A model generated the notes under the pieces. It was not told where the DNA came from. It saw only the letters and a list, made by a program, of their open reading frames with translations, and made no database searches. 64,000 nt of DNA from the NCBI GenBank assembly GCA_963697025.1, contig CAVOMM010000008.1:263741-327740 (forward strand). Reading direction: 5' to 3'. Position numbers and translations under genes: made by a program. This document shows, one piece after another, positions 1 to 57,660 of this stretch. The stretch's first letter is position 1, and each line of letters opens with the position of its first letter. This stretch comes from an uncultured Alphaproteobacteria bacterium. GTDB taxonomy: Bacteria; Pseudomonadota; Alphaproteobacteria; Rhizobiales; Xanthobacteraceae.

Positions 1-141
1 CTGAAACCGAACAATTTGCGGATCGTCGAAATTCGCCTTTGAAATCAAGAGCGCAATTTCCTGACGGATCGGGAAGTCGGTCTTTGACCACGCGCTGAAG
101 AATTTTCAACGCTATATCAGCGCGTTATCATGGATTAAAAT

Positions 142-159
142 GATCGAGTGGGAGTAGGG
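142..159 (+). repeat. Direct repeat copy 1 (GATCGAGTGGGAGT-AGGG), partner at 3314-3332
   Basis: 14-nt exact match plus 4 more nt after a 1-nt indel with 3314-3332. It sits at the left edge of the AT-richer segment. Confidence 0.3.
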
Positions 160-170
160 CTCAGGCGCGA

Positions 171-857
171 TCACTTAGGAGCGAGCATTCTCGCTGTTGC
201 CTCAGCCGCACGCAGGATTCGATCGTTTCGATCAATTGAAAAGCTGGTACAATATTTTTGAAGATGGATTTCGCCCTCTTCAGCTTGGCCGATTGCGATA
301 AGCCCGAGGCCCCAGGCAATATGGGTCTGCACATAGTTTTCGAGCGAGAACCGCCGGAATTTCATCATCGATCTCTCACGAAAAATATCGATGATATCGT
401 GGATCGATTTGACGCGGTTGAAGTCGAGCCTTGCAGCTTTCACAGTGCCTTTCACCGTGCGGGGAACCTTACTCCAATCGTAAGCTTTCTCTGGAAAGAT
501 GAAACAAGAGAGCGCGCACCAGTCGTGTGGGCCGCCTTCTCGATCGATCGGGTCGATGCACAAATCGAATTCCGCGGCTTTCGACGTGCGCTTCCAGCAG
601 AGCCTTCCGCGCCTTCGGATTGGTACGAAGTCTAGCGAAAAGCCCCAGCACGCGGAGTAGCTCAAACCCTTGAGAGCTTGGAACCTAAATATTCTACGTA
701 TCGGGGGCTGGGCGCTTTCAACCCAATGACGCGGTCGAATTCGCTCGAAACCGAGCGATGACAATTCGGCATGAAGGATCATATCTATTCGTGCTGCCAG
801 AACCGACGCCGGAACCGATATGTCCGCTGCCGAGAGATGCGCGTTGGTTTCCTGCAT
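171..857 (-). CDS. Hypothetical protein (228 aa), no family recognised
   Basis: Long ORF in a region more AT-rich than the rest of the window. Tandem with the decayed gene upstream. I recognise no motif. Confidence 0.4.
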   Translation of the reverse strand: MQETNAHLSAADISVPASVLAARIDMILHAELSSLGFERIRPRHWVESAQPPIRRIFRFQALKGLSYSACWGFSLDFVPIRRRGRLCWKRTSKAAEFDLCIDPIDREGGPHDWCALSCFIFPEKAYDWSKVPRTVKGTVKAARLDFNRVKSIHDIIDIFRERSMMKFRRFSLENYVQTHIAWGLGLIAIGQAEEGEIHLQKYCTSFSIDRNDRILRAAEATARMLAPK

Positions 858-895
858 TGAATTTGACCGGGAACATGGGCCGGCATCGCGGACGT

Positions 896-1901
896 TTAGC
901 GGCCGGTTTCTTCGGTTATGACCTTCAGCTTCGGCAAGCCGGTGTAGCCATAAACATCATGCAGGATCGTAAGCAATTCGCGGGCGAGGTTCGCGGCGTC
1001 CACTTGGTCCATCGGATAGGTCTTCCAGTAGTTCGGGGATCAGCCCGGGTCGGCGAAGCCGACCGCATGCAACCGGGCGAACTCGATCCGGGTTGAGTAC
1101 GCTGGCAAGTGCCTCCCAGCTTTCGGCCGATTGAGCTTCACAATAAATTTCCGGCGGTGAGGAGTGGGGCTCGCATTGAACGTAACCAATTCCGGCTTCG
1201 AACACCGCAAACAGGCGTCGATTCATGTTCACGCGTAAGCGTGAAATCTCACCTGTTACCCGGGCTCCGTAGAGATCGAAGAGTTCTGCGGCCGAGCCGG
1301 CCGGCACGCTTGGCCCGAGGTCCGGCTTGGGCGCGTAACTGCAGGCATGAATTGCCGTCGCCTGCATGGATGGCGCATTGTTGACTATGCCGGCGAGGTT
1401 CTGGGTTGGTCCGTTGCGCGGTGGGCAAGGCTCGCTCCTGAGCCAAGTGCTCTCGACTTCGAGATTCGCCAAGTCTGCGTCATAAGCCGTAGCGAGCACC
1501 TGCAAAATTTTATCCGCAACCAAGCTCGCCGCCGTTCCGGTGGGAAAGATTCGCACATAATTGCCGAAGCTCAGATCAAGATGCCAGCCGAGCGCCGCGA
1601 GCTGGCTCACGCGTTCGGGGGTGAGCACGTGATCGAGCGATGGCTGCATCAGTGTCCCGGCCGCTTCACAGCGTAGGCTACGGTCCGGTAACCGACCGCA
1701 CTGCACGTATTTGTTGCCGTCCCAAATGGTTGCGAAACCCTCCTGCCCAGCACGTTCTAAGGTGATTACGTTTTGGAGAGCGGCCTCGACGCTGGCCTTG
1801 TTCGGCTGTGGCGGTGAATCCGTCATAACAACACCCGGCGCGCCAAGCGACACGCAGAGCAACACCGCCCATCCGGTCGGCTGCAATCTAAATACGCGCA
1901 T
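896..1901 (-). pseudogene. Decayed gene for a secreted protein with an internal two-domain duplication; 3' part disrupted by a frameshift and an in-frame TGA
   Basis: ATG at 1901 preceded by GGGAGG, with a signal-peptide-like N-terminus (MRVFRLQPTGWAVLLCVSLGA). Domain 1 reads LTPERVSQLAALGWHLDLSFGNYVRIFP...LVADKILQVLATAYD. Its paralogous copy (TRIEFARLHAVGFADPG*SPNYWKTYPMDQVDAANLARELLTILHDVYGY...TEETGR*) is readable only in another frame from about 1090, contains TGA at 1040-1042, and ends at TAA 896-898. Confidence 0.55.
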
Positions 1902-2251
1902 GCGAGGCCTCCCGGGAAGGTAGCGTAATGCTAAACTTATACGGGAATCAAGTTGTTTGGTAAGGCGTCGCGGCTTTAGGGCTCGGGGCTCCAGATCGCC
2001 CACGGAGCCGTCGATCGATATGGACAACACTTCAAGGTCAGTTCCCCGTTTCGTCCTCCTTGCGCTGGGTATTGGCCGGGTGTCTTCATTCAATCAGCGT
2101 TCGTCGCCGCTTCTTCGTTAAACACGATTCTCACATCCGATAGATGTCTCAGTTGAAAAGCTGAGTTCGTCGAGGCGCGCAGGTCATTTTCACGCGTGTC
2201 CATTTTACTTCACCCCAATGTTCGAACAGAGCGAGAAACGTCAGGACGCAG

Positions 2252-2893
2252 ATGCTGAATCGTAGCGCAATGCAAATGTTTCGATTGACTAATGAGCCCG
2301 GCGAATTGGGACTTAGTTGCAGCCCCGCCGGCGTGTCGCTCGCGGGAGTGCCTCTCCTTCGTCGAACCCCGGCGGGATTTGCACCACGACCTACTTCTGA
2401 GATCGCCTTGTTGCTCAAGGCGGCATACGGCGGCAATTCAACCGAACTGCAGTCAAGACTCGACGCGATCGCGCAAGCGCTCAATCGTAACGATTTCGTC
2501 GCGGCGATGATCGCTGCCGTCCATACGCGGACCCCGGAATTGAGCCCTGAGGCCGTCGTACGGCTTGCCGCCGCCGAGCAAGAGCTAACAAAGTACAATT
2601 ACAATCCTGATGAACCGCGAGATTGGCATGGCCGCTGGACCAGTGACGGAACCGCCGATCGGACAAGCCCGCTTGTACCTGGAGCCGTAAGCGATCCAAC
2701 CGCTGACGACAGTTCACGGGCGGTCGATATCGCGGCGAGAGATGACATTATGCGCAGCATCGTCAAGAATGCATGCATCGCTGAATGTTCGGAATCGAGT
2801 CTTCCAACCGGTGATTATGGCTGGAAATTCGTTCGCTGCTATAACGACTGTGTGAGGAGGCACGGTTACGATCCATCCGTCGTCCGTCTATAG
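2252..2893 (+). CDS. Hypothetical protein (213 aa) with NPDEPRDWHGRWT motif and a Cys-rich C-terminal about 60 aa
   Basis: ATG ORF. An opposite-strand ORF at 2149-2598 overlaps it, so the strand choice is tentative. No family assigned. Confidence 0.4.
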   Translation: MLNRSAMQMFRLTNEPGELGLSCSPAGVSLAGVPLLRRTPAGFAPRPTSEIALLLKAAYGGNSTELQSRLDAIAQALNRNDFVAAMIAAVHTRTPELSPEAVVRLAAAEQELTKYNYNPDEPRDWHGRWTSDGTADRTSPLVPGAVSDPTADDSSRAVDIAARDDIMRSIVKNACIAECSESSLPTGDYGWKFVRCYNDCVRRHGYDPSVVRL

Positions 2894-2923
2894 CTAATCG
2901 GTGTTTGTGCGGTGTGGATAAAA

Positions 2924-3154
2924 ATGGAGAGCAACAGGATGTCACAAGACGCAGCGAAAATCATAATGGACACTGTCATAAGACACCTGGCAGAGCAGGA
3001 TGCCGCTCTGATAAAAATCCAAACGTTGTGTACCGCAGAGGAATTTAATGAATACCGACGCATGATCGGAAAATCTATGGGAGAGATGGTCTCCGAGATC
3101 ATAAATCCAATTGTGTCGAAATATCCGGTGCTGAAACCGCCTCAAATGAGGTAG
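2924..3154 (+). CDS. Small hypothetical protein (about 76 aa), AT-rich codon usage
   Basis: The ORF starts 19-31 nt after the stop of the preceding ORF (GTG 2912 or ATG 2924). This is the most AT-rich stretch of the window. Confidence 0.35.
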   Translation: MESNRMSQDAAKIIMDTVIRHLAEQDAALIKIQTLCTAEEFNEYRRMIGKSMGEMVSEIINPIVSKYPVLKPPQMR

Positions 3155-16767: not shown

Positions 16768-18165
16768 TTATGCATCCTGGCGCCCCACGCGTCGCAGAGG
16801 AGGCGTCCCGTCGCGGGCGATATCGGCGACCAGGTTGGCCAGCATGCCGATGGCCGACAGCGCAAAGCCGTCGGGAGCTTCGTTGTTTGCGGCCTCAGGC
16901 AGGATGGCCTTGGTGAAACCGAGTTTCTGCGCCTCCTTGAGCCGGGCCGCGGTTTGCGCCACCGGGCGCACCGCGCCGGACAGCGACACTTCGCCGAAAT
17001 AGACGGCATCGGCCGGAAGCGGGGCCCGCGTCAGCGAAGATACCAGCGCCGCAGCCGCGGCAACGTCAGCTGCCGGCTCCTGGACGCGCAGGCCGCCCGC
17101 CACATTGAGATAAACGTCATGGCCCGACAGCCGGACGCCGCAATGGGCCTCGAGCACCGCCAGCACCATCGACAGCCGACTCGGATCCCAGCCGACGACG
17201 GCGCGCCGCGGGGTGCCGAGCGCCGTCGGGGCGACCAGGGCCTGGATTTCAACCAAAAGGGGCCGCGTCCCCTCGACCCCGGCGAAGACAGCGGTGCCGG
17301 GGCTGCCGAGATCGCGCTCGGACAGGAACAGTTCGGAAGGGTTTGCGACCTCGCGCAGGCCCGCGCCGGTCATCTCAAATACGCCGATCTCGTCGGTCGG
17401 CCCGAACCGGTTCTTGATGGCGCGCAGAATGCGGAATTGCTGCGAGCCTTCGCCTTCGAAGGACAAGACGGCATCGACCATATGCTCGACCACGCGCGGG
17501 CCGGCGATCTGGCCGTCCTTGGTGACATGACCGACCAGGATGACGGCCGCGCCGGTGCGCTTGGCAAAACGAATGAGCTCCGCGGCCGAGCCGCGCACCT
17601 GGGTCACGGTACCCGGCGCCGCTTCGAGGGCTTGCGTCCACATGGTCTGGATCGAATCGATGACGAGAAGCCGGGGCGTGACGCCTTGCGACAGCGTCGC
17701 CACGATGTCCTCGACCGAGGTTTCGGCCGCGACCTCCACCATCGCGTCGGCGAGCCCAAGCCGGTCGGCGCGCAGCCTGACCTGCGCCACCGCTTCTTCG
17801 CCCGAGATATAAACGGCACGGTGACGGCCACGTGCGAAGGCGGCTGCCACTTCAAGCAACAGCGTCGATTTGCCGATGCCGGGATCGCCGCCAAGGAGCA
17901 GCACCGAACCTCGCACCAAGCCACCGCCGGTGACGCGATCGAACTCGGCGATGCCGGAGGCAAGCCGCGGCGCATCGTGCGACTCACCCTTCAGCGCTTC
18001 GACGGCGAACAGCCGTCCCTTACGGGCAGAACGCCGCGGCCCCTCGGCGCCTTCCTCGACCAGCGTGTTCCATTCGCCACAGGCTTCGCATTTCCCGGCC
18101 CAGCGCGAATAGGCCGCGCCGCAATTCTGGCAGATGAAGTGTTGCGCCCGCGCCGCCATCTTCAC
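16768..18165 (-). CDS. radA: DNA repair protein RadA
   Basis: Zinc ribbon CQNCGAAYSRWAGKCEACGEWN, Walker A GDPGIGKST, and a Lon-like C-terminal domain. Confidence 0.95.
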   Translation of the reverse strand: MKMAARAQHFICQNCGAAYSRWAGKCEACGEWNTLVEEGAEGPRRSARKGRLFAVEALKGESHDAPRLASGIAEFDRVTGGGLVRGSVLLLGGDPGIGKSTLLLEVAAAFARGRHRAVYISGEEAVAQVRLRADRLGLADAMVEVAAETSVEDIVATLSQGVTPRLLVIDSIQTMWTQALEAAPGTVTQVRGSAAELIRFAKRTGAAVILVGHVTKDGQIAGPRVVEHMVDAVLSFEGEGSQQFRILRAIKNRFGPTDEIGVFEMTGAGLREVANPSELFLSERDLGSPGTAVFAGVEGTRPLLVEIQALVAPTALGTPRRAVVGWDPSRLSMVLAVLEAHCGVRLSGHDVYLNVAGGLRVQEPAADVAAAAALVSSLTRAPLPADAVYFGEVSLSGAVRPVAQTAARLKEAQKLGFTKAILPEAANNEAPDGFALSAIGMLANLVADIARDGTPPLRRVGRQDA

Positions 18166-49615: not shown

Positions 49616-50785
49616 ATGAAACGCCGAACACTGCTCAAAGGCATGGCCGCGACTGCGGCGAGCGGCATGCTCGTCCGCCGCGCGGCCGCCGACAGCGTCC
49701 TTAAGATCGGCATCAGCATGCCGATCACCGGCGCCGGCTTCAACGCGGTCGGGCGTCAGCTGCAGGCGGCGCTGAAGCTTTACATGGTGCAGCACGGCGA
49801 CACGGTCGCCGGCCGCAAGATCGAGCTGATCATCCGCGACGACGGCGGCGCCGCCGATACTGCGCACCGGCTGATCCAGGAAATGATCGTCAACGACAAG
49901 GTCGACGTGCTCGGCATCGGCATCACGCCGACCGCGCTCGCCATTGCGCCGCTGGCGACCGAGGCCAAGAAGGTGACGCTGGTGATGAGCTCCGGCGCCT
50001 CGATCACCACCGCCAAATGTCCGTATTTCGTGCGCGCCGGCTTTCTGCTCAGCCAGCAGTCGTGGATTCTCGCCGAATGGGCGGCGAAGAACGGCTCGAG
50101 CCATGTCGTCAGCCTGGTCAACGACTGGGCGCCCGGCATCGAGGCGGAGACCGCGTTCAAGACCCGCTTCACCCAGGTCGGCGGCACCATCGTCGAAGCC
50201 ATCCGGCTGCCGCTCGCCAATCCCGACTTCGCGCCGTTCCTGCAGCGCATCGCGGATCTGAAGCCGGACACCGCTTTCATTTATTTCCCCGGCACTCAGG
50301 CGCCGATCTTCGCTAAGCAATTTGCCGAGCGCGGACTTGCCAAAACCGGCATAAAAATCATCGGGCCGGGCGACCTGACCGACGACGACGGCCTCAATGC
50401 CATGGGCGATCAGATGCTCGGCATGATCACCGCCGGGCCTTACTCCGCCGCGCACAATTCGCCGCTCAACAAGACCTATGTCGCCGGCATCGAGCAGGCC
50501 GGCCACTTCCGGCCGGATTTCGTCTCGCTCGGCGGCTATGACGGCCTGCATCTGCTCTACGAGGCGCTGAAAAAGACCAACGGCAATTCCGACGGCGACG
50601 CACTGATCGCGGCGATGAAAGGCATGGCTTTCGAAAGCCCGCGGGGCCCGATCTCGATCGACGCCGCGACGCGCGACATCGTCAACAATATCTACATCCG
50701 CAAGGTCGAGAAGATCGACGGGCAGCTCTGGAACACCGAGTTCCAGACCTACCCGAACGTGAAAGACCCGATGAAGAGTGGGTGA
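49616..50785 (+). CDS. ABC transporter substrate-binding protein (LivK/branched-chain amino acid-type family)
   Basis: Tat/Sec-like signal MKRRTLLKGMAATAASG and the type I periplasmic binding fold pattern (KIGISMPITG...). Strong GGGGAGG RBS. Confidence 0.85.
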   Translation: MKRRTLLKGMAATAASGMLVRRAAADSVLKIGISMPITGAGFNAVGRQLQAALKLYMVQHGDTVAGRKIELIIRDDGGAADTAHRLIQEMIVNDKVDVLGIGITPTALAIAPLATEAKKVTLVMSSGASITTAKCPYFVRAGFLLSQQSWILAEWAAKNGSSHVVSLVNDWAPGIEAETAFKTRFTQVGGTIVEAIRLPLANPDFAPFLQRIADLKPDTAFIYFPGTQAPIFAKQFAERGLAKTGIKIIGPGDLTDDDGLNAMGDQMLGMITAGPYSAAHNSPLNKTYVAGIEQAGHFRPDFVSLGGYDGLHLLYEALKKTNGNSDGDALIAAMKGMAFESPRGPISIDAATRDIVNNIYIRKVEKIDGQLWNTEFQTYPNVKDPMKSG

Positions 50786-50858
50786 GAATCTTCCAGGGCG
50801 ATGCTCTGAGCGCCACGTCGTTTGAATCAACTTGGTCAGCCATTTGGCGCGTAGCGCA

Positions 50859-50897
50859 GCGTCGGATGATAGTCCTTCTTGGACTGTCATCCGACGC
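50859..50897. other. 17-bp-stem hairpin (GCGTCGGATGATAGTCC-TTCTT-GGACTGTCATCCGACGC) ending 4 nt before the first CRISPR repeat
   Basis: The inverted repeat has a single T/C difference, which is a G-U pair in plus-strand RNA. Followed by TTCC. Confidence 0.5.
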
Positions 50898-50901
50898 TTC
50901 C

Positions 50902-51728
50902 GTTGCGGTTGGCTCTCAATCACCAGACCGCTAAGCTACATCCGATTATGCCACAGCCATAGTCGTAGTTGCGGTTGGCTCTCAATCACCAGACCGCTAA
51001 GCTGTTCATCGTGAGGCCGTTGCTGCCGCCGTAGTTGCGGTTGGCTCTCAATCACCAGACCGCTAAGCTGTCAATGCGGCGTACCGGCTGCAAGGGATGG
51101 TTGCGGTTGGCTCTCAATCACCAGACCGCTAAGCTGCCTTCGACGAGATGAAAAGCGCGATCGAGGTTGCGGTTGGCTCTCAATCACCAGACCGCTAAGC
51201 TAAGAACTTCAAGCTGGGCATCCGCGACGGGGTTGCGGTTGGCTCTCAATCACCAGACCGCTAAGCTCCAACTCGTGTGCGAGGGCCTCCCGCAGATGTT
51301 GCGGTTGGCTCTCAATCACCAGACCGCTAAGCTACCAACACCCAGGCCCGCCTCCCCATCGGCGTTGCGGTTGGCTCTCAATCACCAGACCGCTAAGCTC
51401 ATAGCGCGTGCCGGGCGACTCTCGCCAGTGTTGCGGTTGGCTCTCAATCACCAGACCGCTAAGCTCTGGGCAATGAGGTCCACCATGCCGGCGTAGTTGC
51501 GGTTGGCTCTCAATCACCAGACCGCTAAGCTGACCGCTACGCCGCGCTCGAGTCCGACGTGGTTGCGGTTGGCTCTCAATCACCAGACCGCTAAGCTCGC
51601 CATCCAAGGCGCCGACGGTGGAACAGGGTTGCGGTTGGCTCTCAATCACCAGACCGCTAAGCTCGTTGGCACTGCACATGTTAGCGGATCCTGTTGCGGT
51701 TGGCTCTCAATCACCAGACCGCTAAGCT
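50902..51728 (+). CRISPR. CRISPR array: 13 identical 36-bp repeats GTTGCGGTTGGCTCTCAATCACCAGACCGCTAAGCT, 12 spacers (eleven 30 bp, one 29 bp)
   Basis: Repeats start at 50902, 50968, 51034, 51100, 51166, 51232, 51298, 51364, 51430, 51496, 51562, 51628 and 51693. The plus strand is assigned because the tracrRNA anti-repeat (plus strand, 56496-56516) is complementary to the plus-strand repeat sequence. Confidence 0.97.
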
Positions 51729-51740
51729 CTCTATCTGCTT

Positions 51741-51766
51741 AAGGCCCTGGAAACGGGGCCTTTTTT
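51741..51766 (+). terminator. Rho-independent terminator after the last CRISPR repeat (AAGGCCCTG-GAAA-CGGGGCCTT + T-run)
   Basis: 9-bp stem including one G-U, a GAAA tetraloop, and a TTTTTT tract. It is 12 nt downstream of repeat 13 and oriented to stop plus-strand array transcripts before cas2. Confidence 0.6.
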
Positions 51767-51801
51767 CTTGATTGAGAGTATGAGCGACAAGCGCGGTCAA
51801 G

Positions 51802-52158
51802 TCAGAATAGGGCAAATTGCTCTGGGTTTTTTGGGCTCCGTTCACGGTTTCGGCCACGGTAGGTGTGGATATTCTCATATTGCTTATCCGTGATCGCAAG
51901 GATGTGCACTTTGCCAGCACTCGGCATTGCCTCCTCGATCCTGCGTTCGTAACTCTCGGCCTGTTCCTTTCCCGCGCAAAAGCGCAAGTAGACCGAATAT
52001 TGCGTCATTTCAAAACCGAGATCGAGGAGCTTCAATCGAAAGCGCGTCGCCGCCTTCCGCTCCTTGGCGGACCCTACGGGCAGATCGAAGAATACGCAGA
52101 GCCACATGATTCGATAACCCGATAAGGCGGCCGGAGCACCATTGCCACGCGCAGCCAC
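51802..52158 (-). CDS. cas2: CRISPR-associated endoribonuclease Cas2 (type II)
   Basis: LSGYRIMWLCVFFDLPVGSAKERKAATRFRLKLLDLGFEMTQYSVYLRF. The proposed GTG 52158 lies 2 nt after the cas1 stop; the track start at 52257 overlaps cas1. Confidence 0.85.
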   Translation of the reverse strand: MAARGNGAPAALSGYRIMWLCVFFDLPVGSAKERKAATRFRLKLLDLGFEMTQYSVYLRFCAGKEQAESYERRIEEAMPSAGKVHILAITDKQYENIHTYRGRNRERSPKNPEQFALF

Positions 52159-52160
52159 TC

Positions 52161-53060
52161 TCAGAACCCAAGCGGAAGTCCGGCCCGCGGGAAAACAAGC
52201 CGACCGACCTCCCCCGCGTAAGCCTTGGCGAGCGAATTGGCGAGCCGATCGAGACACGTCATCAATGGGCTCATTCCCTCTTCCGCCGGTAGATCAATCA
52301 CCATGATACGAGCGAGCGCGGCCTTGGCCTCGGAGGTGACCTCGGTGAGACCTTGCTCCTTGAGCCTGTGAACTTCGCGATCGACCAGCGGACGGAAGGG
52401 CTCCATCAGGTCGTCGATTAGGACGAACGAGTTGCCGCGGTTGGCATGCATCAACCCGAGGCTGGGATGCAATCCTGCCGCCATAACCGCACGCGCCGTG
52501 GCAGCCCGCAAAATGGCATAGCCGTAGTTCAGCAGACCGTTGACGCCGCTGCCATCGGTGTCGCGGCGAAACTCCCGTCCGAAAAGCAGTGGCCAGTATC
52601 TTCGCGCCGCTTCCGCCTCGACGTTCTGCGGGTCGCCCGGTCGCACCTTTCGTGCAAGCAGGCGGAAACCGCCAGCCTCGGCGCCGACCGTGGCCAACGT
52701 GGCGCCTTGCGCCAGGATCTTTGCTTGCACGATCTGCTGCCAAAGGCGCTTTTTCAGCGGGGCACTCGCCCGCGCCTGGTCGCTCATGCGGCCGGCCTGA
52801 GCATGATGGCCGTCGACCGGCCAAACCAAGGCGGCCGGCCGATGATTGGGTCCGCACAGCACGACCGGCACGCCGCGCGCCGCTAGTGTCACCATGAGAT
52901 TGTTCGAGTAGGTCAGGCCGTGCGCATTCGCGACGACGGCGGCAAGGTCGTCGAGCGGTATCCGGCCGACCTCCGCACCCTTCTCGGCGATGGTCAAAAA
53001 ACCACGCTCAACGGCCAAGTGCCGTCCATCCGTTGCGACCTCGACAACGCGTCCGACCAT
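52161..53060 (-). CDS. cas1: CRISPR-associated endonuclease Cas1 (type II)
   Basis: 299 aa with NGLLNYGYAILRAATARAVMAAGLHPSLGLMHANRGNSFVLIDDLMEPFRPLVD, which covers the Cas1 catalytic-core region. Confidence 0.95.
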   Translation of the reverse strand: MVGRVVEVATDGRHLAVERGFLTIAEKGAEVGRIPLDDLAAVVANAHGLTYSNNLMVTLAARGVPVVLCGPNHRPAALVWPVDGHHAQAGRMSDQARASAPLKKRLWQQIVQAKILAQGATLATVGAEAGGFRLLARKVRPGDPQNVEAEAARRYWPLLFGREFRRDTDGSGVNGLLNYGYAILRAATARAVMAAGLHPSLGLMHANRGNSFVLIDDLMEPFRPLVDREVHRLKEQGLTEVTSEAKAALARIMVIDLPAEEGMSPLMTCLDRLANSLAKAYAGEVGRLVFPRAGLPLGF

Positions 53061-53144
53061 CGCGGCCTACGTCTGTTGCGTCCATCCGCGCATCCGCGCA
53101 GATTGGAAGGTTGCGGCGAAGTCAGGCCGCGAGCAACGATTGCG

Positions 53145-56100
53145 TTAGCCTTTGGTTAACGCCTCTGTCTGAATGCGCCACGGGCGGCCGAGTTCATCAA
53201 CGCGGACTGGGACCGCGCCCATAGCTTTGAGCGTGCCGTATGAGGCCATCAGCCAGCGGAACGGGTCGATCTCATTGTCCGTCGCGTGCCGGCGATCCAG
53301 ATTGCCAGTCTCGTTATGCGGTGCGAGTTTGAATTGTCGTGCCGCCGCGTCGAGACGGTGAACCACCATGATTTCGGTCTTGCCATCGTTCTCAAGCCGG
53401 ATGAGATCGCCTTTGTGGACACGCATGACAAGCTTGGCATGCGGTTGCTCCTGTCGCCAACGCGGTCCGTTGCCGATTTGGTTGGCGTCGAAACGACGCA
53501 CCGCCTCGCCGTTCCATCTTCCATCTGGCGTCTCAAATATCTCGATGCAAAAATTCTCGCCGGCTGAATAGGCTTTATATGGCGCACCGGTTCGCCGATC
53601 GCGCACTGCCACGAGATATTCGGCCTTCTCAGGTTTTAGCAAGCGCACCCGACGCAGGCCGTGCCTGATGTGCGGGTCGTCGGTCTTGGCGTGCAGCTTG
53701 CGCAACGCATCCGCAAGCGCAATGCCGTTGGCTTTTTCGGCAGTGACATGCGCATGCACCATGTCACGCAGCCGGCGGTCGCGAATGCGCCCGATCTCGT
53801 TCTCATTGAGCGCCTCGATGGGCTTTCGATAGACCAGGTTCGCACCCTCCATTTCCGGCTCCTTCACAAAACCGTAGGCGGTATCCTCGTGGAGTTTGCC
53901 CCCAATGCCATGGTCGGGCTTGTGCGAGACCACCATCCGTTCGAGAGCCGCCTTGAGGTCTTCGCGCAGCTTTTCCTTGTCCCAAGGCGTCGGTATTTCG
54001 ATCTTTTCCCGCTCGTCGTCATAGGCATTCGCCATCTTCCACAACAGCGAACGGTCGGTGAGCGCAGCCACCAAGCCGTCGATGGCATGATGGCGGTGAT
54101 CCGCGCGGTTCTTGACGCCGGAAAATTCCATGGCGTCGGTCGCCGCCAGAAAGTCTTCGGCTTTGTCCTGCACGCCGGCATAGTTATGGTCCGGCAAGAG
54201 GGAATTGAGACCCCACTTACCGCGGATCATCGACGTGAGCCGGCCCGGCACGACCCAGATGTTGTAGGGATTGGTTACAGCGCCGAGATATTGTTTGGCC
54301 AACCTTGCTAGCCATCCGGTCTCGTTGAGTTGGCGGTTGAGAAATCCGCCTCTTTTCTCAAACTGCTCGCGGGCGTCGGCATCGAAGCGCCAGCGCTTGT
54401 TCTTGGGCAGCAACGCCGCACGCGCGGCAATCTCGTCCCATCGGTAGGTAAAGCCATCGATCGTTGGGTTCGACCCGAACGCTTTGTAGGGCCACTGTTT
54501 ACGCTTGGCGCGGTTTGCATAGCGCATGCAGACCGTCTTGTTCGCCGCGCTGTCGTCGAGGCTTTCCTTGAACGGAGCCAGATGCTCGATTTCGACCTCG
54601 TCGGACATCAGTCGGGCAAGCCCGATCTGTTCGCCAGTGAATGGACACTTGCGATCGAGCGAATCCCGGGGATTTAATTCTTCCCACAATCGCATCTTGA
54701 GCATATTGCGCGGCGAAGCTGGCAGGCCATGCTCTGCAAGGTCCTTGGCGCGGGCCTCGTTTCTTTCCTGATTGCGCTGCTGTTGGCGCTGATACTCTAT
54801 TTTTTCTCGCGGAGACAGCTTGAGGGCGCGAGTAAATTCGATGGCGATTTCGGTTGGGGGACCGAAGTCGTCGATCAGGCCGTTGACCAGACGGCGGAGC
54901 TGGCCGAGCCCGATGTGGACTGTGGGATTTGGCAGCCGACCGAAGCGCTTCTCATTGGGTTCGCGTTTGTCGCCGCTGCCAACAACCGCGTCGGACAGCC
55001 ATTCACCGTAATAGGGCAACTTGTCGAGTATTTCGCCGGTCGGCAGCTTGGCGTGATCGCCGAATATTTCTGTGGCGGCTTCGTCGTAACGCAGGCCGCC
55101 TTCCATCAACGGCAGGAGCTTCTTGATGGCGCGCAGTCCGAGCCTGCAATGACCGTCTGGCAATGCCGCATCGGCGATTTTTTCGGCTCTCTCTGCATCG
55201 ACGTTGCATTTGCCTTTCAGCCACAGCGCCAGTTCGATTTCATCGGCCTCGTTGAGCAATTGCTCAATGATCGCGATCTGCCGTTCGACGTCAAGACCGC
55301 GCCAAGTTTTACCAAATAGCGCCTTGTGCGAGAGCCGTGCCGCGGTCTCGTCCCCATTGAGCACCTGGCGCCGCTCGGACTCCAGGTTGAATTTTGCTTC
55401 GGCGGGAAGTTTAAGGAGCGTTCGCAGCTTGTCGAATTTCACTTCCTTGTTCTGCAGCAAAGCGAGCGCGACAAGGTCGCCTTGCTCTTTTGTCAGTTTC
55501 CTCATTGTCCGGCCGGCTTGGCCGACTTCGAGATTGCGCGCCTCCTGATAGATACGGAAGCGCTGCGTGAGCGGATGCGCCCACGGGCATCGGTAGCCTT
55601 CCGGGTCTTTCTCGAACGGCTCCGTTGCCGGATCAAGTGAGCACTTTCCGACCGGCGGCTGTTTCAAGGGGCGTTGATAGAAGATGATTTTGCTTATCTG
55701 TTCTTCCGCGGCTTCCGTCATCGTGGGGTGGTGAGGCGCTTGCGCAGTCCAGATCGCGTCGAACTCGGATTGCAGCAGGTCGCGCGTCGGATAGAAGTCG
55801 TAGGTCGCCTTGGGACCGCTCGACGTGTTACGGGCGCGCACGCCTTCGCGCTTGCGGTGACGGTGCCACAGGAATTCTCCAAGCGTGCGAGCATTCTCAG
55901 CCTGCATCGCTTCCTTGAGCCTGCTTGCGCCCTGCTTGATCGCGCCTTTGTCGTCCTCCTTCTTGTCCGCCTTGCGATTGGAGAGGAAACCGCGGCGCTG
56001 ATTGAGATGGAAAAGTGTCCGCCCGATATGGTGAGCGGGTAGGGGACTATCGAGAGCGTTCGCGCGCAGCTCGTAGGGATCGAACGCCTCCAGCGCCTTT

Positions 56101-56411
56101 CGCTCTTTCGCGTCCTCCGGCATCAGACCATGACCGACGAGTGCATCCATCAATTCGGTGCGGCGGCCGAAATATCGATCAGCGAAACGGTCGCGGCGTC
56201 TGCGGGCACTTCGGGCGGTGCGGCGGTCGACGGCGTTCGACGTTCCCGATTGCGGGTCGCGCCCGTCGGGAAAGACGCGCACCCCACCGCGGCCGAGACT
56301 GGTCGGCCGCCAGTGATCGCCATTGCGTTCCAACAAAACCGTGAACCAACCGAGCGAGTTTGTCCCAAGGTCCAGGCCCAGACGATACGGTCGTGCCATA
56401 TTATGAGCCAT
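53145..56411 (-). CDS. cas9: Type II-C CRISPR-associated endonuclease Cas9 (1088 aa from ATG 56411)
   Basis: RuvC-I YRLGLDLGTNSLGW; Arg-rich bridge helix RRTARSARRRRDRFADR; RuvC-II EIAIEFTRAL; HNH EVEIEHLAPFKESLDDSAANKTVCMRYANRAKRKQWPY; RuvC-III DHRHHAIDGLVAAL. GAGGG RBS 5 nt before ATG 56411. Confidence 0.95.
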   Translation of the reverse strand: MAHNMARPYRLGLDLGTNSLGWFTVLLERNGDHWRPTSLGRGGVRVFPDGRDPQSGTSNAVDRRTARSARRRRDRFADRYFGRRTELMDALVGHGLMPEDAKERKALEAFDPYELRANALDSPLPAHHIGRTLFHLNQRRGFLSNRKADKKEDDKGAIKQGASRLKEAMQAENARTLGEFLWHRHRKREGVRARNTSSGPKATYDFYPTRDLLQSEFDAIWTAQAPHHPTMTEAAEEQISKIIFYQRPLKQPPVGKCSLDPATEPFEKDPEGYRCPWAHPLTQRFRIYQEARNLEVGQAGRTMRKLTKEQGDLVALALLQNKEVKFDKLRTLLKLPAEAKFNLESERRQVLNGDETAARLSHKALFGKTWRGLDVERQIAIIEQLLNEADEIELALWLKGKCNVDAERAEKIADAALPDGHCRLGLRAIKKLLPLMEGGLRYDEAATEIFGDHAKLPTGEILDKLPYYGEWLSDAVVGSGDKREPNEKRFGRLPNPTVHIGLGQLRRLVNGLIDDFGPPTEIAIEFTRALKLSPREKIEYQRQQQRNQERNEARAKDLAEHGLPASPRNMLKMRLWEELNPRDSLDRKCPFTGEQIGLARLMSDEVEIEHLAPFKESLDDSAANKTVCMRYANRAKRKQWPYKAFGSNPTIDGFTYRWDEIAARAALLPKNKRWRFDADAREQFEKRGGFLNRQLNETGWLARLAKQYLGAVTNPYNIWVVPGRLTSMIRGKWGLNSLLPDHNYAGVQDKAEDFLAATDAMEFSGVKNRADHRHHAIDGLVAALTDRSLLWKMANAYDDEREKIEIPTPWDKEKLREDLKAALERMVVSHKPDHGIGGKLHEDTAYGFVKEPEMEGANLVYRKPIEALNENEIGRIRDRRLRDMVHAHVTAEKANGIALADALRKLHAKTDDPHIRHGLRRVRLLKPEKAEYLVAVRDRRTGAPYKAYSAGENFCIEIFETPDGRWNGEAVRRFDANQIGNGPRWRQEQPHAKLVMRVHKGDLIRLENDGKTEIMVVHRLDAAARQFKLAPHNETGNLDRRHATDNEIDPFRWLMASYGTLKAMGAVPVRVDELGRPWRIQTEALTKG

Positions 56412-56479
56412 CGCAGCCCTCGTGCGAATTCTCGTTGACGAAGGCATCAAACCATCTCACACTTACTACGTGCAAGCGT

Positions 56480-56580
56480 CTCGGGAACCGAAAGACTTAG
56501 CGGTCTGGTGATTGAGGGCCTCCCGTTAACAAGCGAATGCACAAAATGGGGCGGGCTGCGGCCCGCCCCTTCCTATTTCG
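56480..56580 (+). ncRNA. Predicted tracrRNA (anti-repeat 56493-56530, terminator hairpin 56548-56569)
   Basis: CTTAGCGGTCTGGTGATTGAG (56496-56516) is the perfect reverse complement of repeat nt 14-34. Pairing continues with bulges to repeat nt 1 (..GGCCTCCCGTTAAC), followed by AAGCG.. and GGGGCGGGC-TGCG-GCCCGCCCC + TTCCTATTTCG. The 5' and 3' ends are not defined; an alternative 3' end lies at the weak hairpin + T5 at 56592-56616. Confidence 0.75.
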
Positions 56581-56644
56581 TTATCCGGTTTTGCGCCCGG
56601 ACACTCGCGCATTTTTCCCTGGGTTTCGCTTCGCTCAACCCAGG

Positions 56645-57439
56645 CTATGGAATGCTCACATTATCGATCAACCGCATCGTCCCGATCCGTGCCGCCACCA
56701 GAAGCCGGATCGGCTCAACCGCCGACGCGGCGAGCGGCGCGAGCGTCTCGGCGTTGCGGGCTTCGAGGTAATCTAGCGCGAAGCCGGCGCGGGTAATCGC
56801 TTCCCGGCCGTCGTCGAGCACGGCCTCGACCGGGCCCCCGGCCTTGATCCGCCCGGCGCACTCCTTGAGCACGCGATAAAGCGCCGGCGCCGCGGCGCGT
56901 TCGTCCGGCGTGAGGTAGCGGTTGCGCGACGACAGCGCCAGGCCGTCCTTTTCGCGCACGATCGGCGCAGCGACGATGCGGGTCTTTAGCCCCAGATCGC
57001 GGGCAAGCCGGGTGACCACTTTGAGCTGCTGGTAGTCTTTCTCGCCGAACAGCGCGATATCCGGTTCGCATTGGATCAAAAGTTTGGCGACCACGGTCGC
57101 CACGCCGGCGAAGAAATGCGGCCGGAAAGCGTCTTCGAGGCCGGCCGTGGCCGAGCCTTCGGGCACAATTCGGGTGGCAAAGCCTTCCGGGTACATGGTT
57201 TCGACCGACGGCGCCCAGACGAGGTCGGCCTTCAGCTCCTTGAGTGCGGCAAGGTCGGCGGACCAGGTGCGCGGATAGGTGCGCAAATCTTCGTTTGGCG
57301 CAAACTGCGTCGGGTTGACGAAGATCGAGACGATGACCCGGTCGGCGCGGGCTTGCGCGATCTTCACCAGCGCAAAATGGCCGGCGTGCAAGGCGCCCAT
57401 GGTCGGCACCAGCGCAATGCTGCGCCGCCGCGCGCGCAA
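56645..57439 (-). CDS. panC: Pantoate-beta-alanine ligase
   Basis: [32 protein letters not shown], and SSRN motifs. Only a TTG start at 57439 is in frame (see findings). Confidence 0.9.
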
Positions 57440-57660
57440 TTCGGCAATCGCGCGGCGTAAGTTCGGCGATGTGCGTATGACTCGGGGATGACTTTTGGAC
57501 TTTCCGTGATTTCATCTTTACCAGTTGCAGCGCGGGCACACCGTTGCGTTTTCGGCGACGCACGCGCGGTTAATGATTAACTTCGGCAAGCCGATGCTGT
57601 ATCTTGACCGCACACGTTGCAATCCGGAAAAATAGTTGCAGCGTAGGGGCCGCGTATCCC

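Follow-up and report, generated by a model that had tools for sequence, protein, structure and literature searches.

Type II-C CRISPR-Cas systems comprise only cas9, cas1 and cas2, and are devoid of both the csn2 gene of type II-A and the cas4 gene of type II-B (PMC3737331). In Neisseria meningitidis and Campylobacter jejuni, the II-C array is read in the direction opposite to the cas operon (PMC3737331), and in N. meningitidis the crRNAs start from promoters embedded in the repeats, at the sixth nucleotide of the spacer (PMC12477760, PMC12638026). Chylinski et al. detected neither an array nor a tracrRNA at the loci of R. palustris, N. hamburgensis and Bradyrhizobium that they analysed (PMC3737331). 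We analysed a 64-kb stretch of DNA (hereafter the window) from an uncultured Xanthobacteraceae-like alphaproteobacterium which, as judged from its sequence, very probably carries a complete, apparently active type II-C CRISPR-Cas9 adaptive immune locus. Unlike the loci analysed by Chylinski et al., this one has both an array and a tracrRNA gene, and both are intact. The locus is of an ordinary, well-described kind, with thousands of homologues, and nothing in it alters the present understanding of type II-C systems.

The locus occupies 5,859 bp (50786..56644), from the stop codon of a binding-protein gene to that of panC, and contains cas9, cas1, cas2, the array and the tracrRNA gene (Table 1); the flanking genes encode the binding protein, PanC and MipZ. 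Codon 2 of panC (57510-57512) shows either a true frameshift or an error of the assembly. Looking up the exact sequence of the binding protein, with a view to strains of the same species, gave no record. The three cas genes form a single minus-strand unit, the array lies 73 nt beyond cas2 and the tracrRNA gene is divergent from cas9. Since the non-coding gaps in the block measure only 116, 73, 84 and 233 nt, there is no room for csn2 or cas4, and the cas complement is that of subtype II-C, i.e. cas9, cas1 and cas2 alone. The initial annotation had described such a minimal set on the minus strand, in this gene order, with the array directly downstream of cas2, the tracrRNA gene just upstream of cas9 on the opposite strand, 13 identical repeats, and a 1088-aa Cas9 carrying the RuvC I–III and HNH motifs. 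All of this was reproduced: three genes fill the block, the repeats are exact copies, the profile search classifies the large protein unambiguously as Cas9, and every catalytic residue was located (see below).

Table 1. Features of the type II-C locus and its flanks (positions in the window)
Feature	Position	Strand	Description
Peripla_BP_6 binding-protein gene	49616-50785	+	flank; Pfam
Hairpin, cas-distal side of the array	50851-50906	+	core and outer stem; predicted from folding and covariation
CRISPR array	50902-51728	+ (predicted crRNA sense)	13 identical 36-nt repeats, 12 spacers
Terminator hairpin, then TTTTTCTT	51741-51762	+	between array and cas2
cas2	51802-52158	-	118 aa, GTG start 2 nt after the cas1 stop codon
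cas1	52161-53060	-	299 aa, type II / NMENI class; TIGR03639, Pfam, PADLOC
cas9	53145-56411	-	1088 aa, type II-C effector, RuvC I–III and HNH; TIGR01865 and Pfam
Candidate tracrRNA promoter	56435-56463	+	TTGACG, 17 nt, CACACT; read from the sequence
tracrRNA gene	~56470-56577	+	anti-repeat, nexus stem, terminator stem, U-rich tail
panC	56645-57439 or further	-	flank

The locus resembles that of N. meningitidis (Nme1Cas9/Nme2Cas9) in its minimal cas9–cas1–cas2 set, a Cas9 of about 1080 aa, 36-nt repeats starting with GTTG, 30-nt spacers and an array oriented opposite to the cas operon (PMC3737331, PMC12477760), and also in a TAnnnT that closes the repeat on its 3' side, the place of the -10 box in Neisseria repeats (PMC12477760). 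It differs in having a short tracrRNA gene, located upstream of cas9, that contains just one terminator hairpin, and in having a hairpin at the cas-distal end of the array. Cas9 loci of the Nitrobacteraceae and Xanthobacteraceae (Nitrobacter hamburgensis X14 plasmid NC_007959.1, Rhodopseudomonas pseudopalustris, Nitrobacter sp. TKz-YC01 and Xanthobacteraceae MAGs) form one Cas9 family with it, at 63–89% identity, with a shared repeat family and tracrRNA; the N. hamburgensis X14 relative (64% identity) is plasmid-borne. Unlike the present island, the relatives at 75% identity or less whose flanks are readable do not adjoin panC: the L089 copy lies between lptB and rpoN, and neither panC nor mipZ is found near L093–L095 and L098.

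The cas9 gene is preceded by a Shine-Dalgarno sequence (GAGGG) 7 nt upstream of its ATG. Its product matches TIGR01865 with 553.4 bits over positions 1–1069 of 1070, as well as Pfam HNH_4 and RuvC_III, and has the hallmarks of a type II system, namely a single large effector with a split RuvC domain, an inserted HNH domain and retained catalytic residues (D14, E525, H610, N633, H774/H775 and D778). The residue preceding the HNH histidine is a Glu, unlike the usual Asp present in NmeCas9; this Glu is common to L081 and L083, both of which carry long arrays. Among solved structures, the top match is 8ja0 (E = 5.5e-52, residues 9–743), with 6jdq and 6kc8 scoring nearly identically; from the D16/H588 motif numbering in the alignment, we take these three to be structures of Nme Cas9. 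The resemblance to NmeCas9 is remote and does not extend to the C-terminal, PAM-interacting part, which fails to align. The other top matches are likewise compact Cas9s (1055–1154 aa), the matches named by their depositors as Streptococcus thermophilus Cas9 score far lower, and Cas9s of 1337–1442 aa come last.

Cas1 matches TIGR03639 (cas1_NMENI) with 238.4 bits for a cut-off of 120, Pfam Cas_Cas1, and PADLOC Cas1_II with 324.8 bits. By these profile and solved-structure scores, Cas9 and Cas1 appear to group with the II-C representatives. The dN/dS values are 0.06–0.09 for cas9 and 0.04–0.08 for cas1, which points to strong purifying selection on both genes. Cas2 matches TIGR01573 (62.7 bits) and PADLOC Cas2_II (138.5 bits). 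The profile scores of the Cas proteins far exceed the curated cut-offs. Its N-terminal PxALSGYRIMWL is kept through synonymous changes, and cas2 of L094, L095 and L098 has an ATG at the position of the GTG at 52158, which we retain as the real start; a start at an internal ATG was rejected, as were readings of 151 and 101 aa in favour of 118 aa.

The tracrRNA consists of an anti-repeat (56493-56530), a short GC...GC nexus stem (56533-56540) and a terminator stem (56548-56569), with a 5' end placed tentatively from the candidate promoter; equivalent hexamers and spacing (TTGACG/T, N17, C/GACAA/CT) are found in L081, L083, L086 and L089. Aligned with the reverse-complemented repeat, the anti-repeat agrees at 28 of 36 positions, so that the locus has the tracrRNA complementary to its CRISPR repeat that characterizes type II. 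Across 11 related loci, 98.4% of the cells of the tracrRNA:repeat structure are paired and nine pairs have changed on both sides (0 of 500 shuffles), compensatory changes that support the predicted duplex. A search of Rfam gave no match to a tracrRNA or CRISPR family, and a match to 'mir-278' was rejected, as it corresponds to the leader hairpin near the array. Small ORFs between the tracrRNA and cas9 in L088 gave no informative Pfam matches, nor did ORFs in the low-GC start of the window.

The repeat, GTTGCGGTTGGCTCTCAATCACCAGACCGCTAAGCT, occurs in 13 exact copies (50902...51693, the last one ending at 51728) with a period of 66 nt, separated by 12 unique spacers, 11 of 30 nt and one of 29 nt. 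Because of the orientation of the anti-repeat and of the terminator, and because of the covariation, the plus strand is the predicted crRNA sense, which makes the array convergent with the cas operon. The T-run of the terminator located between the array and cas2 is on the plus strand, consistent with this sense, and the element is oriented so as to stop array transcripts ahead of cas2. It is kept in the six island copies examined (the window, L081, L083, L086, L088 and L089), including L089, which is at another genomic site.

The array is short compared with those of relatives, which carry 24–47 repeats, and spacer content is wholly different between lineages, which implies active acquisition; L083, L084, L085 and L091 share every visible cas2-proximal spacer, so that a comparison of shared spacers gave no sign of array polarity. 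No protospacer was found for the spacers tested: the whole array gave only chance-level matches to phages and plasmids, the sole real match being the repeat family on the N. hamburgensis plasmid, and 157 spacers from related arrays had no match in plasmids. IMG/VR was scanned with eight exact 20-nt seeds; two seed matches (L100 and L101) were rejected as due to chance since neither extends into the other 10 nt. These searches of phages, plasmids and viral contigs yielded no PAM. Within the 64-kb window, no spacer has a match at up to six mismatches; an identical stretch of 12 nt shared by spacer 6 and the anti-repeat region was attributed to chance (19 of 30 positions overall).

The other end of the array is bordered by a stable predicted hairpin. 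The 152-nt stretch 50786-50937 folds with a free energy of -69.9 kcal/mol (z = -5.5). Its core is an 18-bp stem (50858-50875 with 50881-50898) located 4 nt before repeat 1, and a 6-bp outer stem (50851-50856 with 50901-50906) takes in the first 5 nt of this repeat. In five island copies, 91.5% of the cells are paired and seven pairs have changed on both sides, a level reached by 0–1 of 500 shuffles; the hairpin is absent from the L089 copy. A conserved, covarying stem beside the first repeat, with outer pairs reaching into it, is reminiscent of the leader–repeat hairpins by which crRNA production is controlled in type VI (PMC13187072) and of the type II-A leader RNA (cited in PMC12477760); unlike those, the present stem is almost wholly outside the repeat, looks like an intrinsic terminator of the upstream gene, and is missing in L089. 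It probably serves the co-directional binding-protein gene as a terminator or an insulator.

Each repeat also contains a weak promoter-like motif, TTGGCT (nt 8–13) and TAAGCT (nt 31–36) separated by 17 nt, which matches the sigma-70 consensus at 7 of 12 positions and falls below the threshold of the promoter scan. At 11 loci, T31, A32 and T36 are invariant while nt 33–35 vary, and T36 is retained where its pairing partner changes, a pattern that fits a -10 element; the L086 and L093 repeats read TGnTAAACT. The hairpin, which stops 4 nt short of repeat 1, leaves no space for a leader promoter, and in L089 only 8 nt separate the terminal repeat from the stop codon of lptB. Neither the covarying hairpin nor the repeat motif figured in the initial annotation.

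[quoted passage not shown] The crRNAs would start at the weak promoter of each repeat, a few nucleotides into the following spacer, and plus-strand array transcripts would run towards cas2 and meet the conserved terminator at 51741-51762, with the hairpin most likely keeping transcription of the binding-protein gene from running into the array. The repeat part of the crRNA would pair with the tracrRNA anti-repeat through a lower stem, a 2x2 loop and bulge, and a 25-bp upper stem; Cas9 would bind this duplex, optionally trimmed by RNase III, and cut PAM-flanked DNA with its RuvC and HNH sites, and Cas1–Cas2 would insert new 30-nt spacers.

Compared with its closest relatives, this genome carries the 5.86-kb block as an insertion. 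Indeed, in six related species genomes (L001–L006), panC and the binding-protein gene are convergent with their stop codons about 5–25 nt apart (5 nt in L001 and L002, about 9–25 nt in L003–L006) and with the gene order kept on both sides. The flanks stay L001-like up to the junctions, with 84–88% nucleotide identity on the panC side (last 800 nt) and 92–96% on the binding-protein side (first 200 nt). The same junction is occupied by the island in five other related lineages (L081, L083/L091, L086, L088 and L090), so that, within one clade, some members have the island at the panC junction and others do not, and gain here and loss in the nearest relatives look alike. The insertion between a transporter gene and panC proposed in the initial annotation is thus borne out by the empty junctions, but the island is not unique to this genome.

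The Cas tree groups L086 with L088 (100% bootstrap) and the window with L083 (85%); the tree of the flanking genes conflicts with it, grouping the window with L086 (99%) and L083 with L088 (87%). Together with the empty sites of L001–L006, this conflict backs the horizontal origin initially suggested from composition, and the composition itself was as described: the GC content of the block is 0.597 vs about 0.645 in the flanks, and GC3 is 0.62–0.74 for the cas genes vs 0.80–0.87 for the flanking genes. As also noted at the time, neither of the marks of an integrase- or transposase-borne island was detected: there are no direct or inverted repeats of at least 8 nt at the island ends, and no mobility gene inside the block or adjoining it. 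We infer that the island was exchanged between lineages, and because it is without integrase or terminal repeats, the exchange probably took place by homologous recombination in the conserved flanks. Between copies, dS is 0.9–1.8 for cas9 vs 0.46–1.18 for panC; since the cas values are at least as large, they lend no support to a recent transfer between the lineages sampled, and neither flank shows a donor-like recombination tract.

Other readings of these data have to be weighed. One, which we consider doubtful, is that the island is ancestral at the panC junction and vertically inherited, so that this genome acquired nothing and the empty sites of L001/L002, L003/L004, L005 and L006 are secondary deletions. 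Six lineages do share the exact junction with no integrase to explain repeated targeting, and the depth of cas9 dS, equal to or beyond that of panC, is what long residence would produce. However, such a history demands at least four independent deletions, each leaving about 5–25 nt between intact stop codons and no recognisable remnant of the 20–110-nt island margins, and it has to accommodate the strongly bootstrapped tree conflict, the lack of cas9 within 10 kb of panC at all 80 species-representative panC loci, and cas genes whose GC3 has not approached that of the host. Exchange between lineages remains our preferred reading. Quite improbable, taken jointly, are the more elaborate proposals that the island is a self-contained cassette with structured ends (the tracrRNA terminator and the hairpin), which some mechanism beyond simple flank recombination would have inserted repeatedly at the tail-to-tail panC junction, and that the hairpin is a dedicated II-C device, blocking extraneous leader-derived crRNA or insulating a leaderless, repeat-promoted array from the upstream gene.

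The production of crRNAs can also be viewed differently: they might be processed from one long precursor starting upstream of the array, with transcription either initiated at a leader promoter within 50786-50856 or reading through from the binding-protein gene, in which case the hairpin would be part of a leader RNA and not a terminator. Such a precursor would be in keeping with the poor sigma-70 match of the repeat motif, with the co-directionality of the array and the upstream gene both here and in L089, with the short motif TGAATCnACTTGG common to the window and L086 upstream of the hairpin, and with the pairing of the leader to the start of repeat 1 in the outer stem, which recalls leader–repeat structures of other CRISPR types (PMC13187072). 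Yet the hairpin, which is GC-rich, 18 bp long and followed by UUCCGUU, would more probably halt transcription than let it pass, the promoter scan found no sigma-70-like promoter in 50786-50856, the invariant T31, A32 and T36 fit a -10 element, and the II-C systems studied experimentally use repeat-embedded promoters (PMC12477760); we regard the long precursor as less likely than initiation within the repeats. It is very unlikely that the locus is intact but silent, or has a non-defence role such as Cas9-guided regulation of host genes or the limitation of DNA uptake. Such a state could account for the short array and for spacers that match none of the phages, plasmids or viral contigs searched, but it fits poorly with the purifying selection on cas9 and cas1, with the complete difference in spacers between lineages, which implies active acquisition, and with the absence of spacers matching the window itself; moreover, a lack of protospacer matches is normal for soil bacteria, whose viruses are largely unsampled.

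The panC junction thus offers a clean natural presence/absence of CRISPR-Cas at one precise junction of convergent housekeeping genes in a clade of soil alphaproteobacteria, and, given the empty sites and the tree conflict, it can be used to ask how defence islands that lack mobility genes are spread and lost. The locus also provides a compact, 1088-aa Cas9 orthologue whose guide pair is fully specified and which is a candidate for PAM and editing tests. The pair consists of a 36-nt repeat and a tracrRNA with one terminator hairpin; the primary transcript of the latter is predicted to measure about 110 nt, of which about 85 nt extend from the anti-repeat to the 3' end.

The initial annotation had described a minimal type II-C set without csn2 or cas4, comprising a 1088-aa Cas9 with its RuvC and HNH motifs, 13 identical repeats and a tracrRNA gene on the strand opposite cas9, and each of these elements was recovered. 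The 1088-aa protein scores 553 bits against TIGR01865 (cut-off 100) and also matches Pfam HNH_4, RuvC_III and several PADLOC Cas9 models; its start codon, preceded by a GAGGG ribosome-binding site 7 nt on the 5' side, aligns with the starts of homologues. The cas2 frame was corrected to 118 aa because its N-terminal segment (PxALSGYRIMWL) is kept over twelve loci by synonymous changes, with ATG replacing GTG in three of them. Besides cas9, cas1 and cas2, the block has only non-coding gaps of 116, 73, 84 and 233 nt, too short to hide csn2 or cas4. As judged from sequence, every testable hallmark of type II, and of subtype II-C, is present in the locus.

Features of the type II-C locus and its neighbours (window coordinates)
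Feature	Position	Strand	Remarks
Peripla_BP_6 binding-protein gene	49616-50785	+	neighbour of the block
Cas-distal hairpin	50858-50898		18 bp; upstream side of the array
CRISPR array	50902-51728	+ (crRNA sense)	13 exact copies of the 36-nt repeat GTTGCGGTTGGCTCTCAATCACCAGACCGCTAAGCT
Hairpin between array and cas2	51741-51762		T-run on + strand
cas2	51802-52158	-	GTG start at 52158, 2 nt past the cas1 stop
cas1	52161-53060	-	best model type II cas1_NMENI, 238 bits
cas9	53145-56411	-	TIGR01865 end to end
Candidate tracrRNA promoter	56435-56463	+	TTGACG, 17 nt, CACACT; predicted from sequence
tracrRNA terminator stem	56548-56569	+	9-bp GC stem, then U-rich tail, 3' of anti-repeat
panC	from 56645	-	other neighbour of the block, with mipZ

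Cas9 residues were assigned by alignment to 8ja0, the solved Cas9 with the best score (E = 5.5e-52); in the printed alignment the RuvC-I and HNH motifs coincide with chain residues D16 and H588, in agreement with NmeCas9 numbering. D14, H610 and N633 of the window protein thereby correspond to D16, H588 and N611, while E525 lies within an IAIEFT motif and HHAID occupies positions 774-778. The residue preceding the catalytic histidine is Glu (EIEH) in the window and in L081 and L083, two related lineages with the island, and Asp in three other copies (L086, L088, L089); the Glu is a conservative change, found in lineages that keep long arrays. The dN/dS ratios against five orthologues (0.06-0.09 for cas9, 0.04-0.08 for cas1) place both genes under strong purifying selection.

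Outside the array, the 64-kb window has a single repeat-like sequence, at 56494-56529, which agrees with the reverse-complemented repeat at 28/36 positions. When each repeat was joined to its own tracrRNA and the window was aligned with ten further loci, standard pairs filled 98.4% of cells and both partners had changed in nine pairs, of which the repeat:anti-repeat duplex holds six and the terminator three. These values were reached by 0/500 shuffles, and pairing fell to 32-49% when the partners were slid by 1-3 columns. The tracrRNA is therefore real and encoded on the + strand, which makes + the crRNA sense as well. The array is thus read toward cas2, convergent with the cas operon, an arrangement already described for II-C arrays in N. 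meningitidis and C. jejuni (PMC3737331). The candidate tracrRNA promoter recurs at equal spacing in L081, L083, L086 and L089; an Rfam search for the tracrRNA returned no matching family.

The surroundings of the tracrRNA gene vary between copies. Two more small hairpins (TCCGG...CCGGA, and CCTGGGTT...AACCCAGG at 56618-56644) are found in the interval from the tracrRNA terminator to the panC stop codon, a 70-nt segment (56584-56643) absent from all other island copies. Between tracrRNA and cas9, L088 (7770-9000) has three small ORFs (about 57, 95 and 96 aa) on the strand opposite cas9, none with a Pfam match, L083 and L086 have 250-300 extra nt, and an inverted repeat, CCACGTCACGAC...GTCGTGACGTGG, is common to L086 and L088; the window has none of these.

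The array has a period of 66 nt, and its 12 spacers, each unique, are 30 nt long except for one of 29 nt. The spacers have no match in the 64-kb window itself, and a comparison with 50,697 phage records and 72,556 plasmids gave chance-level matches only; none of 157 spacers from related arrays matched the plasmids. Eight 20-nt seed scans of IMG/VR yielded two matches, neither extending into the remaining spacer. Within spacer 6, positions 51272-51292 have GAGGGCCTCCCG, 12 nt, in common with the anti-repeat region (56505-56525; 17/21 identical, 19/30 overall), which was judged a chance match and no self-target. In four contigs with identical Cas9, the visible cas2-proximal spacers are all shared. 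The hairpin between array and cas2 is kept in 6/6 island copies examined, including L089, where the island occupies another site.

At the cas-distal end, the segment 50786-50937, which contains the hairpin preceding repeat 1, folds at -69.9 kcal/mol (z = -5.5), and a conserved GCGnAGCG motif pairs with the start of repeat 1 in a 6-bp outer stem. In five island copies the hairpin differs in sequence while keeping its shape (91.5% of cells paired, seven pairs changed on both sides). With the co-directional binding-protein gene on its 5' side and UUCCGUU after it, it is most simply read as a terminator or insulator.

This hairpin ends 4 nt before repeat 1 and so leaves no room for a leader promoter adjoining the array; in L089 just 8 nt separate the lptB stop codon from the terminal repeat, without any leader. 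In N. meningitidis, II-C crRNAs arise from promoters within each repeat and start at the 6th spacer nucleotide (PMC12477760; PMC12638026). The window repeat carries a candidate made up of TTGGCT (nt 8-13), 17 nt and TAAGCT (nt 31-36). Over eleven loci, T31, A32 and T36 are invariant and nt 33-35 variable (L086 and the more distant locus L093 read TGnTAAACT), which fits a -10 element. We therefore lean toward crRNAs that would start from a promoter embedded in each repeat, a preference kept modest because the motif matches the consensus at 7/12 positions and was not reported by the promoter scan; the same two points keep a leader or read-through precursor a serious, if less probable, alternative. 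In L089 (14324-14370), the island copy lies inside an lptC-lptA-lptB-rpoN string, and its terminal repeat, 1 nt different, is co-directional with lptB: transcripts reading through from lptB would run into the array in the sense of the crRNAs.

By analogy, the locus would work like the Neisseria and Campylobacter systems. It is an ordinary member of a populous alphaproteobacterial Cas9 family. Its Cas9 has 7181 homologues at E <= 1e-20, the closest being 87-89% identical and metagenome-derived, one named as a Xanthobacteraceae MAG. What it adds is modest: the covarying hairpin before repeat 1 and a same-site polymorphism.

A PanC scan of species-representative genomes returned 80 loci, of which the closest were L001 and L002, uncultured alphaproteobacterial MAGs whose flank proteins are 87-97% identical to those of the window and whose gene order is the same (dnaJ-like, mipZ, panC, binding protein, dioxygenase, DUF1489, carboxylase). 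The empty junction that the initial annotation had proposed seeking is found there: the panC and binding-protein stop codons are 5 nt apart in L001 and L002, and about 9-25 nt apart in L003-L006. Compared with L001/L002, the last 800 nt on the panC side are 84-88% identical at the nucleotide level and the first 200 nt on the binding-protein side 92-96%; both flanks are L001-like up to the junctions, and foreign DNA starts right after the binding-protein stop codon. The block was also correctly described as less GC-rich (0.597 against 0.645 in the flanks) and as lacking mobility genes and flanking direct repeats (its ends have no terminal repeats of at least 8 nt). GC3 is 0.62-0.74 in the cas genes and 0.80-0.87 in the flank genes, with an equal offset in four other copies. 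Relative to its nearest relatives, the block is, by this comparison, an insertion.

Five further lineages carry the same island at this panC junction (L081, L083/L091, L086, L088 and L090, the last a complete 7.7-kb contig). Cas9 copies of at most 75% identity with readable flanks are not beside panC; lptB and rpoN flank the L089 island, and a relative at 64% occurs on a Nitrobacter hamburgensis plasmid. On the flank-gene tree, presence and absence are interleaved: the window (with island) is sister to L001/L002 (without), L088 (with) to L005 (without), and L083 (with) groups with L003/L004 (without). The Cas tree unites L086 with L088 (bootstrap 100%) and the window with L083 (85%), whereas the flank-gene tree unites the window with L086 (99%) and L083 with L088 (87%), a conflict indicating that the island has a history of its own. 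Given the very short empty junctions and the conflict between the trees, repeated clean deletion of an island ancestral at the junction is less likely. We read the pattern instead as presence/absence polymorphism of the island at a single junction, lineages having occasionally exchanged it, most plausibly by recombination in the conserved flanks. Since dS between island copies is not smaller for cas9 (0.9-1.8) than for panC (0.46-1.18), the high Cas protein identity reflects constraint and not recent transfer among the sampled lineages. The horizontal acquisition first suggested is supported by the empty junctions and the conflicting trees; gain in the window lineage is inseparable from loss in L001/L002 with present sampling.

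The region downstream of panC is a generally variable spot with recurrent gene gain and loss, since L091 has no binding-protein gene (its island, with 47 repeats, directly adjoins the dioxygenase gene at 17737-17942) and DUF1489 directly follows panC in relatives outside the clade. At the other end of panC, the ATG (57515-57513, - strand) has AAA behind it, against AA in L001 and L002, which puts the start codon out of frame with the rest of the gene; deleting one A restores an L001-like N-terminus. Either the assembly is wrong in this homopolymer, or a real frameshift shortens PanC by about 20 residues. Elsewhere, window positions 1-3000 are the lowest-GC stretch (0.57 against a mean of 0.637), with ORFs that have no Pfam match save a weak chaperone-like PF22552, and may be another acquired segment.
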